Assembly (NCBI GenBank): GCA_046760225.1
Contig: JBHIDR010000004.1
Span: forward strand, 1 to 38,723
Direction: 5' to 3'
DNA length: 38,723 bases
Source: Candidatus Aenigmatarchaeota archaeon
GTDB taxonomy: Archaea; Aenigmatarchaeota; Aenigmatarchaeia; Aenigmatarchaeales; JACQIB01
Shown: piece by piece, positions 3,001 through 6,000 of the stretch
How positions within the stretch are numbered: the first letter of the stretch is position 1
How the letters are laid out: the number at the start of each line of letters is the position of its first letter
Made by a program: the position numbers

Positions 3001-6000
3001 GGGATTTGATTTCCCATGAACAACTACCACGCCGCCCACACCTGCGGCAGCGAACCTGTGTATCATCTCGGCAACCGAATTGAGTATAATCTGTGCCTCA
3101 CCCATCTCTGTAATGAGTTTCTTTGGCTCGAGTATCTCAATTGAAGAGGGACCGTATTCTATTACAAAATTAACAAGCTCGTCAAACCTCTTTACCACCA
3201 TCTCCATGTTGATTACCTGTGACCAGCCTTCCTTTACTCCTGGCATGGGGTTTTCCACCTTCTTTACCTCAGAAAAATCCTTTTTATAAACCTTTACCTT
3301 TTTGTCTGCCTCCATTTTGTTAAATAAGCTCTCAAGTGACTTCTTTGTGACTTCCTCGCTTATTGCAAGTGCTTCAAAGGCCAACCATGCCCTTATCCAG
3401 CCTCCATCAACCTTCTCCCTTGCCTCAGCTTCTGTAATCAAGCAAACACCTTTTTTAATAGTTGTCTGGTAAAGTATTAAACCTTTGGTTTTTACTCGGT
3501 TCCAACCTTTTTAAGCATTTCCTTTGGTATCCATTTCTCTCCTGCAACTGGTATTTTCTCACCACATGGGCACTTCATGTCCTTTAGAAGGAACTCGGTC
3601 ATCCTTGGGCCATATCGCCCTATCACCTCTTGACCGCATTTTGGACAGTAAGTTGACTCGTACTTGCTACCAGGCACGTTTCCAAGGTAAACGTAATTCA
3701 GTCCTTGTTCCTTTGCTGCCCTGTAGGCCTTCTCCAGAAGCGAAACACTGGTAGTCGGGGCCCTCATCTTGTAGGAAGGGAAGAACTGGATGAGATGGAA
3801 AGGTGTATCAGGCCCCAGGTTCTCCACAATCCACCTGCTTATTTTTTTTATATATTCTTCCTTTGATTCTGGCATTATAAGATTCGTGATCTCTATGAAA
3901 ATCTTGTTTTTCTTGTAGGCAAGCATTGCATCATAAATGGGCTGGGCATCTGGCACAAGAGAGTATTCTTTGTAAAATGCCGGCTCAAGGGAAGATTTCA
4001 GGTCTATCACAGCAGCATCAAGGAAAGTGGCTGCTTTCTTTATTACTTCTGGTGGTGTGTAACCGTTTGTCACAAAAACATTGTAGAGACCATTCTTCTT
4101 TGCAAGCAGGGCTGTATCATGCGCATACTCAAAGAATATTGTTGGCTCAGTATAGGTGTATGCAATTCCCTGCAGATTGTTCTGCTTTGCAATCCTTACA
4201 AGTTTCTCAGGTGGCGCGTCCTCTCCATGGATATCTGTCCATTCCTGGGAAAGTATGTAATTGCAGCAGAAACTACAACGAAAATTGCAGCCCACTGTTG
4301 AAACAGAGAGATTGAGTGAGCCAGGTGCGAAGTGAAAAAGGGGTTTTTTGAGTATGCTATCAACGTTCATTGCAGCTACCTTTCCATAGACAAGGGAGTA
4401 CAGCTTTCCTCCCTTGTTCTGCCTGACCCTGCAGGTGCCTGTCTTGCCTTCGCTTATCACGCAGTACCTGCAGCAGAGCCGGCACTGTATGCCTCCGGTC
4501 ACAGACTTCCAGAACATTGCCTCTTTCATAATATTAATATAGATGTCACTCAGATAAACTTAAATTTTACGAGGCACAAAATAATTTATATGAAGATAAA
4601 TGATGATTTGTCGGAATTAATAGGTGCAATTATTGGAGATGGAAATTTGTATGACAAGAGACCCTCTTTTGTTGAAATAAGTGGAGATCCCAATCTTGAT
4701 TCACATTATTTCAAATCAATTCTAGTACCTATTATAGAAAAAGAACTTAATTATACTCCCAAATTATTTCATCATAGTGGCGCATTAAGACTAAGAATAA
4801 ATAACAAGAAATTCGTCCTATTCCTAAAGGGAATAGGAATACCAAGCGGAAAATATAAGACCAAGGGTGTTTTAATTCCTGATATTATTCTAAGTTCTTG
4901 GAAAAATACCAAACGATGTATAAGAGGTATATTTGATACTGATGGATGTATTCACTTTGATAAAAGAAATGTTTATAGAAAGCCATATCCTAGGATAGAA
5001 TTACACATGTCTAATCACAGATTAATAAGACAGATACAAATTGTCCTTGATAAACAGGGAATTTATACCAAAACCTCCAAGAAGAAAAACTCATTTTCAC
5101 TTTATTTTAACGGTCCTAAAGGTACCAAGAGCTTTCTTTCAAATGTAGGATTCTCCAACCTAAGACATATAAGTAGAATAAATAAATTCTATCCAGACAT
5201 GATATCGTTGAATTGTGCCAATGCCCCGGTGGCTCAGCCCGGTAGAGCGGCTGACAATTGGCCGAATCTCGTAACTAGGCAAGAAAACAGCAAGTCGGGG
5301 GTTCAAAAGGGGAGAAACTACGTTTCTCCCTCTACCCTCTCCCTTGAGGGTGGCCTGAAATTCCCTCCCGGGGCTCCAATCTACAAATAGAAAAACCTCA
5401 TTACTAACCTTTCCATATTTATCACTGATAGATAGTTATTTAAGCACTAGTAAGAAATTGTAATTATGGACTATGGTGACTTTGAGGATGATGCACAGAG
5501 AATCAGAAAAGCATTAATTCCGAAGATTATTGACAAGGAATTAAGGGGTTATATAGTATTACCAAAACCGTGGAAGCCGACCATTTCTGCCATTGTTTAT
5601 TCTCACTGGAATTTGAAGGAAGAAAGCAAATACCGCTCCCCTGATGGCAAAACACATTTGGATGAGGTAGAGGAAGAATTGGAATCCAGAGGGTTGGTTA
5701 AGCCTGCCCGTTCAATTTCAGTCAGGGTGGCCTCACGTGCTGCACTTTATAACTGGCTGGCATCATGGGGTGAATTGCCTGACCATCTAACTGCATACGA
5801 TAGAAATGGTGAGGTTATCCCAAGATCTGAAGTACAGTTTTATACCGATGATATGGTTGTTGAAGGAATGGAGCAAGATATGCGCATTAACATAGAAAAT
5901 GCATCCGACTTGAAAGATGTTCTAAAGGTTTTCAAAGAACGAGGTCACAAATTCAAAATCGATGATGACTGGGATTTCTCAAACGGGAAAATGGAAGAAG

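Follow-up and report, generated by a model that had tools for sequence, protein, structure and literature searches.

The window analysed here, a stretch of 38,723 nucleotides from a Candidatus Aenigmatarchaeota archaeon (genome G000, contig C4), carries on its forward strand an open reading frame at 4590..5390 that overlaps a tRNA-Thr(CGU) gene at 5223-5378. Both had been reported in a first-pass annotation, and ORF, frame, Pfam domain and tRNA were all recovered. The conserved divergent neighbour of the tRNA is a radical-SAM gene on the reverse strand (3492..4529; Pfam Radical_SAM, 2e-18), which marks the orthologous site in relatives. Between its start and that of the ORF lies a spacer of 60 nt (4530..4589, +) with a promoter-like box, AACTTAAATT, at 4557-4566 (+), i.e. 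at -33..-24 from the endonuclease ATG. The frame is open already from 4332. From 4590 to 5388 it is not interrupted by any in-frame stop, so that it spans the entire tRNA gene. It can be divided into an endonuclease core of 211 codons (4590..5222, +) and a run-on of 55 extra codons across the tRNA gene (5223..5390, +), which ends with TAG at 5388-5390.

The tRNA gene (5223-5378, +), in which CCA is encoded, was missed by ARAGORN in the raw sequence, and Rfam reported nothing for it at gathering score nor at E up to 10. It was detected by a scan for acceptor, D and T arms, and once three introns had been removed by script, ARAGORN called a 77-nt tRNA-Thr(CGT). The exons are located at 5223-5253, 5267-5274, 5287-5307 and 5362-5378 (+), the proposed introns at 5254-5266 (30/31), 5275-5286 (38/39) and 5308-5361 (T loop, ~59/60). 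The T-loop type was seen again in two other tRNAs. Both small introns are found again in the tRNA-Thr of G020 and of G027, and a single one of them in that of G009; none of these three genomes has the endonuclease gene at this site. They are not matched in the congener G001. The focal tRNA-Thr appears to resemble those of G020, G027 and G009 more than that of G001, which may or may not reflect co-conversion of flanking markers with the gene. The ORF itself lies outside any intron or intein, with a complete tRNA downstream and no tRNA exon upstream, and is not fusioned to any host ORF. Its reading as an endonuclease-bearing tRNA intron was ruled out, as the downstream tRNA has both acceptor strands and all arms.

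The focal protein matches PF14528 (LAGLIDADG_3; E 1.2e-8, 35.6 bits against a cut-off of 22.5) and has two motifs, LIGAIIGDG (residues 9-18) and IRGIFDTDG (residues 110-119). In an alignment of 15 family members G12, G16, D17, G18, G113 and D118 (focal numbering) are invariant, including both catalytic Asp residues, D17 and D118. The AF2 model (pLDDT 95.4, pTM 0.92) predicts a pseudo-dimeric fold of the alpha-beta-beta-alpha-beta-beta-alpha type, consisting of two repeats of a helix and four strands. Its best Foldseek matches are LAGLIDADG enzymes without exception, headed by I-Tsp061I (2dch; TM 0.74-0.76 over the full length), and weaker ones include LAGLIDADG maturases and WhiA. While a single-sequence search of PDB gave no match at E up to 0.01, a profile search of PDB sequences reached E 8e-14 to 1e-6 with archaeal LAGLIDADG enzymes. 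The archaeal single-chain enzymes I-Tsp061I, I-DmoI, PI-PfuI and the Tli VMA intein endonuclease share fold and domain order with the focal enzyme at an identity of only 15-22%, yet, unlike the focal gene, they are encoded inside rRNA introns or inteins. Judged by sequence and model, the ORF is an intact two-motif single-chain LAGLIDADG homing endonuclease gene, with cleavage as its predicted activity.

The first-pass annotation had regarded the frame running into the tRNA as a feature, with the caveat that such overlaps may be run-on of the called frame. It was the caveat that proved right, and the 156-nt "overlap" is run-on. The last helix comprises residues 202-207, so that the fold ends at ~207 of 211, and model confidence drops at the final residues of the 211-aa protein. 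The ortholog in G028, which is 51% identical and occupies the same site, terminates at a stop codon 2 nt short of its tRNA; the extension beyond codon 211 is therefore not conserved. Among docked frames, stops range from 61 nt before tRNA +1 to 168 nt past it. The absence of a stop before the tRNA is probably a by-product of tight packing.

Docking of endonuclease genes on tRNA genes

Three further LAGLIDADG genes of the same genome, all on the reverse strand, had been described as ending inside tRNA genes, and re-reading their coordinates bore this out. The gene on C1 (59152-59835/59904) stops 25 nt inside tRNA-Leu(UAG) (+1 at 59176), that on C16 (1986-2912) 86 nt inside tRNA-Gly(UCC) (+1 at 2071), and that on C72 (162-908) 10 nt inside tRNA-Pro (+1 at 171). 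All three are LAGLIDADG_3 members (Pfam, 50.7-68.4 bits). There is no spacer between endonuclease frame and tRNA in any of the four cases, the focal codon 211 abutting tRNA-Thr +1. By contrast, the endonuclease gene of tRNA-Tyr on C3 resides within a 693-nt intron, and among 60 relatives searched it has no relative of more than 36% identity.

Frames of at least 100 codons open into tRNA +1 at six of the 37 tRNA candidates. Four are the LAGLIDADG genes, and the remaining two have no Pfam match and a make-up that is not protein-like. The free-standing LAGLIDADG frames number nine rather than the seven counted previously, so that the docked fraction is 4/9, compared with at most 2 of ~900 other genes, the latter number being a rough estimate based on genome size (Fisher p = 7e-8). 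By these counts, docking of LAGLIDADG genes on tRNAs is not a chance effect. Docked tRNAs of G000 are not significantly longer than others (median 139.5 versus 108 nt, p = 0.11).

Homology searches in 60 relatives yielded 54 loci, comprising all matches with an open frame below 400 aa. At 25 of them a co-directional tRNA lies at the 3' end of the endonuclease gene, eight abut a tRNA 3' end convergently, and in three the gene is located in a tRNA intron. The frame is open in 24 of the 25 docked homologs; 17 of these 24 stop inside the tRNA and seven 2-61 nt upstream. In the endonuclease tree, tip clades with a common target were found for Thr-CGT (support 100), Thr-GGT (99), the initiator tRNA (99), uppS (96), the tRNA-Gly pair of G000 and G037 (97) and Gln (83), where several tRNA names derive from acceptor stem and discriminator by tRNA identity rules because scripted anticodon inference was ambiguous for many multi-intron loci. 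Intron-borne and docked endonucleases interleave (e.g. L017 and L026 near L015). The comparison supports the view that docked endonucleases are target-specific, with one tRNA species per supported tip clade. A related-locus search of genome contigs with the endonuclease gave 99 pattern matches, none of which was confirmed, and in the published literature we found no paper on the docking of endonuclease genes on tRNAs.

Empty and occupied sites

The radical-SAM gene is present in 25 relatives, and only one of them, G028, has an occupied Thr site. In at least 15 of the 25 the site is empty, i.e. tRNA-Thr follows 35-45 nt from the radical-SAM start codon and the endonuclease is absent; these include the same-genus G001 and the G028 congeners G026, G029 and G035. 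The Gly site (21 loci) is occupied in G000, G023 and G037 and empty in eight genomes including G001, and the Pro site next to rpoN (26 loci) is occupied in G000 only and empty in seven, again including G001. Empty sites in a close relative had been noted before, and we reproduced them in G001, where the HIT stop is followed after 1 nt by tRNA-Gly and the radical-SAM start after 38 nt (not 27 nt, as previously given) by tRNA-Thr. In G032 the HIT stop even falls inside tRNA-Gly. No empty Leu site was found because the gene upstream of the C1 case has no homolog among 40 relatives.

In G028 the 38-nt spacer aligns with the empty spacer of its congeners, and the ATG of the endonuclease takes the place of tRNA +1. 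Compared with the empty sites, the insertion thus splits the -1/+1 junction. The spacer of G000 measures 60 nt, not 38, and gives no simple alignment with that of G001. Between G000 and G023 the endonucleases of the Gly lineage are 67% identical and the adjoining HIT proteins 39%, a contrast that we count as a sign of lateral spread. For G000 and G028 the corresponding values are 51% for the endonuclease and 56% for the neighbouring radical-SAM protein; therefore the Thr lineage is compatible with old vertical descent and many losses. In contigs of four DNA runs over 4000-5900, no junction bypassing the endonuclease gene was found, and the one loose contig end, at 5222, is part of another tRNA-Thr-like gene.

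At the level of sequence, the comparison shows a cassette that is present or absent at a conserved site, an ortholog at the same site in the genome of another family, and related endonucleases at the same tRNA species. It supports the notion that the endonuclease genes are mobile or patchy.

Promoters, tRNA fragments and introns

A position weight matrix was built from 30 ordinary tRNA promoters of G000, in which the box starts at a median of -33. With this matrix the box in front of the focal gene scores 7.2 bits, and it ranks at the 98.5th percentile among 5000 positions drawn at random from the genome. A box starting at ~-33 precedes 24 of the 30 ordinary tRNAs but none of the four docked ones. 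Instead, in C4 and C72 it is the ATG of the endonuclease that has a box in front of it at tRNA-type distance, and in C1 a tRNA 5' fragment (11.8 bits), while the C16 locus directly follows the HIT gene, as in the empty site. In the relatives the picture is mixed. With the G000 matrix, which fits family f3 poorly, 8 of 22 docked tRNAs have a box of their own that lies within the 3' end of the endonuclease gene or shortly after it, and a box before endonuclease or fragment was seen for only 10 of 22. The comparison supports a position of the docked genes between a tRNA promoter and the tRNA, as far as promoters can be predicted. The earlier proposal that these genes ride on tRNA transcription agrees with this arrangement in G000. 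It does not extend to the convergent loci, which abut tRNA 3' ends and therefore cannot ride on tRNA transcription, so that promoter capture is not universal.

In several lineages, including tRNA-Gly of G000, a 5' piece of the old tRNA, 13-63 nt long, persists upstream. In the Gly lineage the ATG is immediately preceded by a native-type fragment of 22-24 nt, in G023 and G037 and, in decayed form, in G000. That of G023 shows few differences in 24 positions from the native type (empty site of G032), which suggests a recent event. In a local-alignment test for such fragments only L046, where tRNA positions 1-63 are duplicated, exceeded all 100 of 100 shuffles; those of L005, L006, L015, L025, L029, L033 and L035 were assigned by position and eye. 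Introns are present in all three docked tRNA-Gly genes and in none of the eight empty alleles (Fisher p = 0.006), and in both G000 and G037 the first of them begins right after GGACC. The docked tRNA-Gly of G037 resembles that of G000 and not G037's own upstream fragment; whether as a trace of co-conversion or not, the sequences leave undecided. The docked tRNA-Thr of G028 has neither an intron nor an upstream fragment. Since tRNAs with several introns escape ARAGORN, the count of introns in the relatives is a biased one. The previous suggestion that the genes are copied into the spacer upstream of the tRNA needs refinement: they do lie just upstream, but exactly at -1/+1 (Thr) or inside the tRNA, with a 5' fragment left behind and a full copy downstream.

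Interpretation and biological meaning

From these data we consider it probable that the focal ORF is a free-standing, intact, target-specific homing endonuclease gene lodged at the -1/+1 junction of tRNA-Thr(CGU), between promoter region and mature tRNA, expressed as a pre-tRNA leader and spreading by intron-less homing. Transcription from a tRNA-type promoter would yield a (near) leaderless endonuclease mRNA that doubles as the pre-tRNA's 5' leader, and RNase P, whose RNA is present in the genome, would free the tRNA; therefore no splicing would be needed, and the leader would play the part that introns or inteins play elsewhere. Empty alleles would be cut at or near the promoter/tRNA junction or in the tRNA 5' region and repaired from the occupied allele. 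In sister lineages, such as tRNA-Gly of G000 and probably tRNA-Leu, the break or insertion point may fall within the tRNA gene, with the promoter keeping the old 5' fragment and the cassette supplying a complete intron-bearing tRNA downstream. It counts against this reading that the endonuclease mRNA would lack a stop codon after the RNase P cut, so that its translation and release would need an explanation. The 60-nt Thr spacer of G000, the mixed promoter picture and the convergent loci in relatives, the similar identities of endonuclease and radical-SAM protein in the Thr lineage and the lack of an endonuclease-free variant in contigs of the four DNA runs also speak against it. Intron-less homing, as put forward in the first-pass annotation, is partly supported, by patchy sites, target-specific clades and the promoter-side position, but not by the frame run-on, by plain copying into spacers or by the convergent loci.

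A different arrangement, which we regard as possible but distinctly less probable, departs from leader-borne homing mainly in the place of the cut and in what is immune. As in collaborative homing, two parts would move together, the gene of the endonuclease and a full copy of the tRNA. The enzyme would cut within a tRNA gene that has no introns, somewhere between D arm and anticodon arm, while the mobile copy would be immune because introns at odd positions interrupt its recognition site; the resident tRNA would be overwritten from the break onward and leave its 5' fragment. At the Thr locus the target would lie in the anticodon arm, flanked by the two mini-introns. The Gly lineage argues for such a unit with its native-type fragments before the ATG, the confinement of introns to occupied alleles, their common start after GGACC and the G037 copy that is unlike its own fragment; so do the fragments elsewhere (L046 by shuffles, seven loci by eye) and the mini-introns that G000 has in common with G020 and G027 rather than with its congener. 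It is difficult to reconcile, however, with the intron- and fragment-free docking in G028, with mini-introns in three genomes devoid of the endonuclease gene and with the insignificant length difference of docked tRNAs, and the bias of the intron tally weakens it further.

The focal gene could also be an immobile relic of an endonuclease-bearing tRNA intron or of an old insertion, fixed, vertically inherited and lost in many lines, with an enzyme that no longer works as a drive. The interleaving of intron-borne and docked members, the host-like divergence of the Thr-lineage endonuclease and the lack of polymorphism in contigs of the four DNA runs would fit, but the gene has kept an open frame, both catalytic Asp and a high-confidence fold, three sites are empty in a genome of the same genus, the identity contrast of the Gly lineage speaks against it, and the near-native G023 fragment suggests a recent event, so we deem this unlikely. 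Even less credence is given to a domesticated helper kept beside its client tRNA, either maturase-like for odd introns or a WhiA-like DNA-binding regulator. Although docked tRNAs are intron-rich and maturases and WhiA are known offshoots of the fold that appear among the weaker structural matches, close relatives keep the same tRNAs, including intron-bearing ones, without these genes, the catalytic residues are retained, and in archaea a protein endonuclease takes care of tRNA intron removal, so that a maturase is not needed. That small ORFs of a compact genome merely happen to abut tRNAs, or that gene calls are over-extended, has a negligible probability. The overlap is indeed run-on, two non-genic frames also reach into tRNAs, and real genes may abut tRNAs, as the HIT gene does in G001 and G032; nevertheless, we regard this explanation as refuted by the Fisher test in G000, the docking of 25 of the 54 homologs and the tree clades that follow the target.

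Among the known systems close to this one is phage T4 SegB, a free-standing GIY-YIG homing endonuclease in a tRNA gene cluster, whose recognition site includes a conserved tRNA motif, T-psi-C, common to many tRNAs, and which causes preferential inheritance of segB and neighbouring tRNA genes with loss of recipient markers (intron-less homing; PMC2330249). Both systems have a free-standing endonuclease gene among tRNA genes. The differences are enzyme family and setting (GIY-YIG in a phage versus LAGLIDADG in a cellular chromosome) and the position, since SegB is not wedged between promoter and +1 of one tRNA species; nor does the abstract of that paper describe a tRNA fragment or an intron-bearing replacement copy as found here. 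F-CphI and psbA exemplify collaborative homing. In this process, also termed trans homing, a free-standing endonuclease and an ORF-less intron have the same target site, as outlined in PMC3984707. Going by that outline, the likeness lies in an endonuclease gene beside the targeted gene, where an intron of the neighbour would interrupt the target and so shield the carrier. The tRNA-Gly lineage agrees with this, but the intron-free docked tRNA-Thr of G028 does not conform, and the outlined cases concern group I introns in phage protein genes rather than protein-spliced tRNA introns in archaeal chromosomes.

In fungal mitochondria, free-standing LAGLIDADG and GIY-YIG genes enter the ends of other genes and bring along a duplicate of the end that they displace. 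There, too, an own copy restores the interrupted gene and the displaced piece is the scar; the duplicate, however, is a protein-gene 3' end fused in frame, whereas in the archaeal loci a tRNA gene is duplicated, in its 5' part or entirely, with the scar at the promoter. A further parallel is mitochondrial tRNA punctuation, where an mRNA abuts a tRNA without its own stop, which is completed by polyadenylation. The 3' end of the endonuclease mRNA would likewise come from tRNA 5' processing, but here in a selfish insert and not as a general genome layout, and we know of no polyadenylation step that would complete stops in this organism. New in the present case are the upstream 13-63-nt tRNA 5' fragments and the docked intron-bearing copies opposite intron-less empty alleles.

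The usual view is that homing endonuclease genes persist in essential genes by hiding inside self-removing introns or inteins, and most of the known free-standing ones come from phages and organelles. The pre-tRNA leader, removed by ordinary 5' processing, would be a third hiding place in cellular chromosomes. The docked genes also offer natural enzyme/target pairs with guessable targets (Thr, Gly, Leu, Pro, Gln, initiator and others) and a concrete, testable connection from endonucleases to two puzzling features of small archaea, tRNA introns at odd positions and fragments of tRNA genes. As a tentative wider view, archaeal tRNA genes may be a gene-drive battleground in which lineage-specific LAGLIDADG enzymes each target one tRNA species, odd-position introns and partial tRNA duplications being the immunity or repair half of the cassette. 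If this is true, the long unexplained spread of non-canonical tRNA introns in small archaea would be driven by homing endonucleases, and RNase P would be the "splicing" step that renders the insert harmless.

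The focal endonuclease gene and its tRNA-Thr partner

The window, contig C4 of the 851-kb genome in 83 contigs studied here (G000), is present as DNA in hydrothermal-vent metagenome runs, and the closest named records to the radical-SAM gene beside the focal ORF are Candidatus Aenigmatarchaeota MAGs, one of which agrees with the relative G017 in spacer and tRNA. The ORF (4590–5390, +) encodes a LAGLIDADG endonuclease with two LAGLIDADG motifs and a match to Pfam LAGLIDADG_3 above the cut-off. Both catalytic aspartates (D17 and D118) are invariant across 15 aligned family members, and the AlphaFold2 model computed from this 15-member alignment (pLDDT 95.4) has its final helix at residues 202–207. 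The top Foldseek match is I-Tsp061I, an archaeal intron-encoded enzyme (TM 0.74); intein endonucleases and I-DmoI come next. A profile search against PDB sequences is consistent with these matches.

Codon 211 ends at position 5222, and 5223 is the +1 of a tRNA-Thr(CGU) gene, i.e. there is zero spacer. The 156-nt overlap between ORF and tRNA described in the first-pass annotation is real as sequence, the first stop in the frame lying at 5388–5390. It is only run-on and not a feature, however, because the protein fold is complete upstream of the tRNA and in the relative G028 the frame of the ortholog is closed by a stop of its own, 2 nt upstream of the tRNA there.

The tRNA starting at 5223 (+) was missed by both ARAGORN and Rfam. 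A structure scan revealed its D arm and 7-bp acceptor stem, together with a T arm that is split and a CCA encoded in the gene, and removal of three proposed introns by script yielded a 77-nt tRNA-Thr(CGT). A family of ~54-nt introns occupies one T-loop position in three different G000 tRNAs (Thr-CGU, Leu-UAG and one more), and its 29-nt core differs by 0–1 bases between the copies at window positions 5308–5361 and in the regions C1:59055–59083 and C3:28211–28239. Such near-identity suggests that introns may have transposed from tRNA gene to tRNA gene. Non-canonical intron positions also occur in further tRNA genes of the window, those at 23184–23283(−), where a 26-nt insert lies in the D loop, 24635–24830(−), 8849–8975(+) and 7044–7132(−). 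Several intron-bearing tRNAs of the window were missed or half seen by ARAGORN and Rfam, and CCA is encoded in every tRNA seen there.

Docking on tRNA genes and empty sites

The 24 open frames of G000 that match the family HMM (38 domain matches with Pfam) comprise six in rRNA introns, two in tRNA introns (one in a 693-nt tRNA-Tyr intron, the other by structure scan only), seven in large host ORFs, taken as inteins by size, and nine that are free-standing. The earlier reading of four docked genes, i.e. genes whose 3′ end abuts the +1 of a tRNA gene on the same strand, holds, although among nine free-standing genes rather than seven. The other three, at tRNA-Leu(UAG) on contig C1, tRNA-Gly(UCC) on C16 and tRNA-Pro on C72, likewise have zero spacer, and their ORFs extend 25, 86 and 10 nt into the tRNA, respectively. 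Open frames of 100 or more codons reach the +1 of 6 of the 37 tRNA candidates; four of these frames are the LAGLIDADG genes, and the remaining two are without a Pfam match and look non-genic. Docking is seen in 4/9 free-standing LAGLIDADG genes versus at most 2 of ~900 other genes, a number roughly estimated from genome size (Fisher p = 7e-8).

Other LAGLIDADG genes of G000 occupy different surroundings. The large-subunit rRNA gene (C8:14300–22032, −) harbors five such ORFs and by blastn reaches ~2.4 kb past its Rfam match. A 214-aa ORF at C13:18712–19353(+) lies within GC-rich, structured-looking sequence with no rRNA or recognisable tRNA; this sequence could belong to the intron of some other gene for an RNA. 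Immediately before uppS, a LAGLIDADG gene is found both at C3:41974–42963(−) and in the relative G004 (locus L044); in both genomes the uppS frame is interrupted just past the ...IIPDG motif by ~60–70 nt of GC-rich sequence, possibly an intron of the tRNA type within a protein gene.

A search with the 211-aa focal protein against 60 relatives and G000 produced 75 rows, spread over 31 of these 61 genomes. Leaving out 7 rows of G000 and 14 in frames of at least 800 aa (inteins), we examined all 54 remaining loci with ARAGORN, the structure scan and blastn against G000 rRNA, 12 of them also with Rfam. At 25 loci a tRNA lies on the same strand at the 3′ end of the ORF, which is broken in one case; among the 24 intact ORFs (four stop offsets derived by hand) 17 have their stop 2–68 nt into the tRNA and 7 have it 2–61 nt upstream. 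Eight ORFs (L014, L023, L028, L036, L038, L040, L048 and L052) abut or approach the 3′ end of an opposite-strand tRNA, mostly overlapping it, with L014 18 nt and L028 ~110 nt off. The others lie inside tRNA introns (three), in rRNA introns (eight) or elsewhere (nine, one of them before uppS as in G000), except for L008 (G020:C1:22587–26048), in which a full tRNA is followed by the endonuclease gene and then by the final ~20 nt of the tRNA once more, CCA included. From this mirror-image layout it looks as if a cassette had entered the tRNA 3′ end, bringing a replacement.

The Thr site, a conserved divergent radical-SAM/tRNA-Thr(CGU) pair, was compared at 25 loci of relatives. At least 15 are empty, the tRNA lying 35–45 nt from the radical-SAM start codon; the spacer of the empty same-genus G001 site is 38 nt, and only G028 is occupied. 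The 38-nt spacer of G028 aligns with those of its congeners G026, G029 and G035, and its endonuclease ATG takes the place of the tRNA +1. Since the far end of the cassette reads stop, 2 nt, tRNA, the insertion is exactly at −1/+1. The empty spacers (L057–L073, 35–45 nt, the counterpart of window positions 4530–4589) contain two crossed promoter boxes, each beside the other gene's start, an arrangement that implies putative transcripts running both ways with no leader or almost none.

The empty Gly site previously noted was reproduced in G001 (HIT stop, 1 nt, tRNA-Gly). Among 21 loci examined, G001 and seven more are empty, and G000, G023 and G037 are occupied. tRNA-Pro follows rpoN at 14–62 nt in G001 and six others, and of 26 sites only that of G000 is occupied. 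No empty Leu site was found, because the gene upstream of the C1 case is without a homolog in 40 relatives.

Left-behind tRNA fragments and promoters

The first-pass annotation did not include tRNA fragments left behind at the old promoter, which we add here. In the Gly lineage, a 22–24-nt piece whose first base is the tRNA start of the empty sites directly precedes the endonuclease ATG, and a complete tRNA-Gly lies 3′ of the gene. In G023 this piece agrees with the native 5′ end of the empty G032 at all but a few bases, in G037 it is of the native type with a 3-nt deletion, and in G000 it is decayed (GCGGGTGTAGTTGG...). At L100 (G023:C4:28350–31457) the tRNA-Gly 5′ end occurs three times in a row: a near-native fragment, the endonuclease gene ending in a decayed copy (last 11 codons) and, after 34 nt, the working tRNA. 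The acceptor stem of this full tRNA differs, with compensation, and the docked tRNA-Gly of G037 is closer to the docked copy of G000 than to G037's own upstream fragment. Introns are present in 3/3 docked tRNA-Gly copies versus 0/8 empty alleles (p = 0.006); the first starts directly after GGACC, adjoining the fragment end. At L046, tRNA positions 1–63 are retained at the old promoter, above all 100 shuffles, and fragments were recognised by eye and position at L005, L006, L015, L025, L029, L033 and L035. The Leu case on C1 probably has one too. No 5′ tRNA fragment was seen in the Thr lineage (C4, G028) or on C72.

For promoters we used a 10-nt PWM from 30 ordinary G000 tRNA genes (consensus TTTTTAAATT; background of 5000 random positions). 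The box of ordinary tRNAs starts at a median of −33 and exceeds the 95th percentile in 24/30, versus 0/4 docked tRNAs (percentiles 55–92). Boxes at tRNA-type distance precede the endonuclease ATG on C4 (4557–4566, +; AACTTAAATT; 98.5th percentile) and C72 (minus strand; 97.7th percentile), and on C1 a box of 11.8 bits stands at that distance from the tRNA-like 5′ fragment. No such box is present on C16, which in this resembles the empty Gly site, where the tRNA directly follows HIT. With RNase P RNA encoded on C8, the pattern in G000 fits a model in which endonuclease and tRNA would be transcribed from the tRNA's own signals, RNase P releasing the tRNA. The relatives gave a mixed picture with the same PWM: a box of their own is present for 8/22 docked tRNAs, and in 10/22 a box precedes the endonuclease gene or fragment; in the L006 and L012 cassettes, among others, the tRNA promoter clearly spans the endonuclease stop codon.

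Phylogeny and presumed mode of spread

A quick maximum-likelihood analysis (LG+G4, SH-aLRT support) of 69 endonuclease domains gave a tree with many weak deep branches and with tip clades that go with the target tRNA or gene. These clades are C4 with G028, both at Thr-CGT (support 100), two Thr-GGT cases (99), the co-directional L049 and convergent L052 at the initiator tRNA (99), G000-Gly with G037 (97), the two uppS cases of G000 and G004 (96), and three Gln with one other (83). Several tRNA names are presumptive and follow acceptor/discriminator rules, because the script's anticodons were ambiguous. Docked, tRNA-intron-borne and rRNA-intron endonucleases are interleaved. In the Gly lineage, the G000 and G023 endonucleases share 67% identity versus 39% for the adjoining HIT proteins, which points to lateral movement; the Thr lineage (endonuclease 51%, radical-SAM 56%) is uninformative on transfer.

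At the level of sequence, an intact LAGLIDADG gene is set precisely on the 5′ boundary of one particular tRNA gene; at conserved sites some genomes carry it and others lack it, and it belongs to a target-specific clade. The gene would be expressed as a pre-tRNA leader from tRNA-type signals, and RNase P would free the tRNA from it, so that its message would lack a stop codon; spread would proceed by cleavage of empty alleles and their repair from occupied ones. The cut could fall at the promoter/tRNA junction, which would explain the intron-less tRNA-Thr of G028. Alternatively, it could fall inside the tRNA, where introns and a replacement tRNA copy would give immunity, as the Gly lineage suggests.

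Among the closest precedents are endonuclease genes of fungal mitochondria that have duplicated gene ends. Another is T4 SegB: this GIY-YIG gene is free-standing, lies in a tRNA cluster and has a site that includes a tRNA motif (PMC2330249). Intron-less and collaborative homing (reviewed in PMC3984707) also belong here. Nawrocki et al. (PMC6125680) report 39 group I introns from archaea; every one is in an rRNA gene, and 21 have LAGLIDADG ORFs. The window has no group I intron match. In the openly accessible full-text literature, we came across no account in which archaeal LAGLIDADG genes dock on tRNA genes. Counted over relatives that are kin, so that the counts are not independent, docking on tRNA genes is the commonest habit of the focal endonuclease family across the class.
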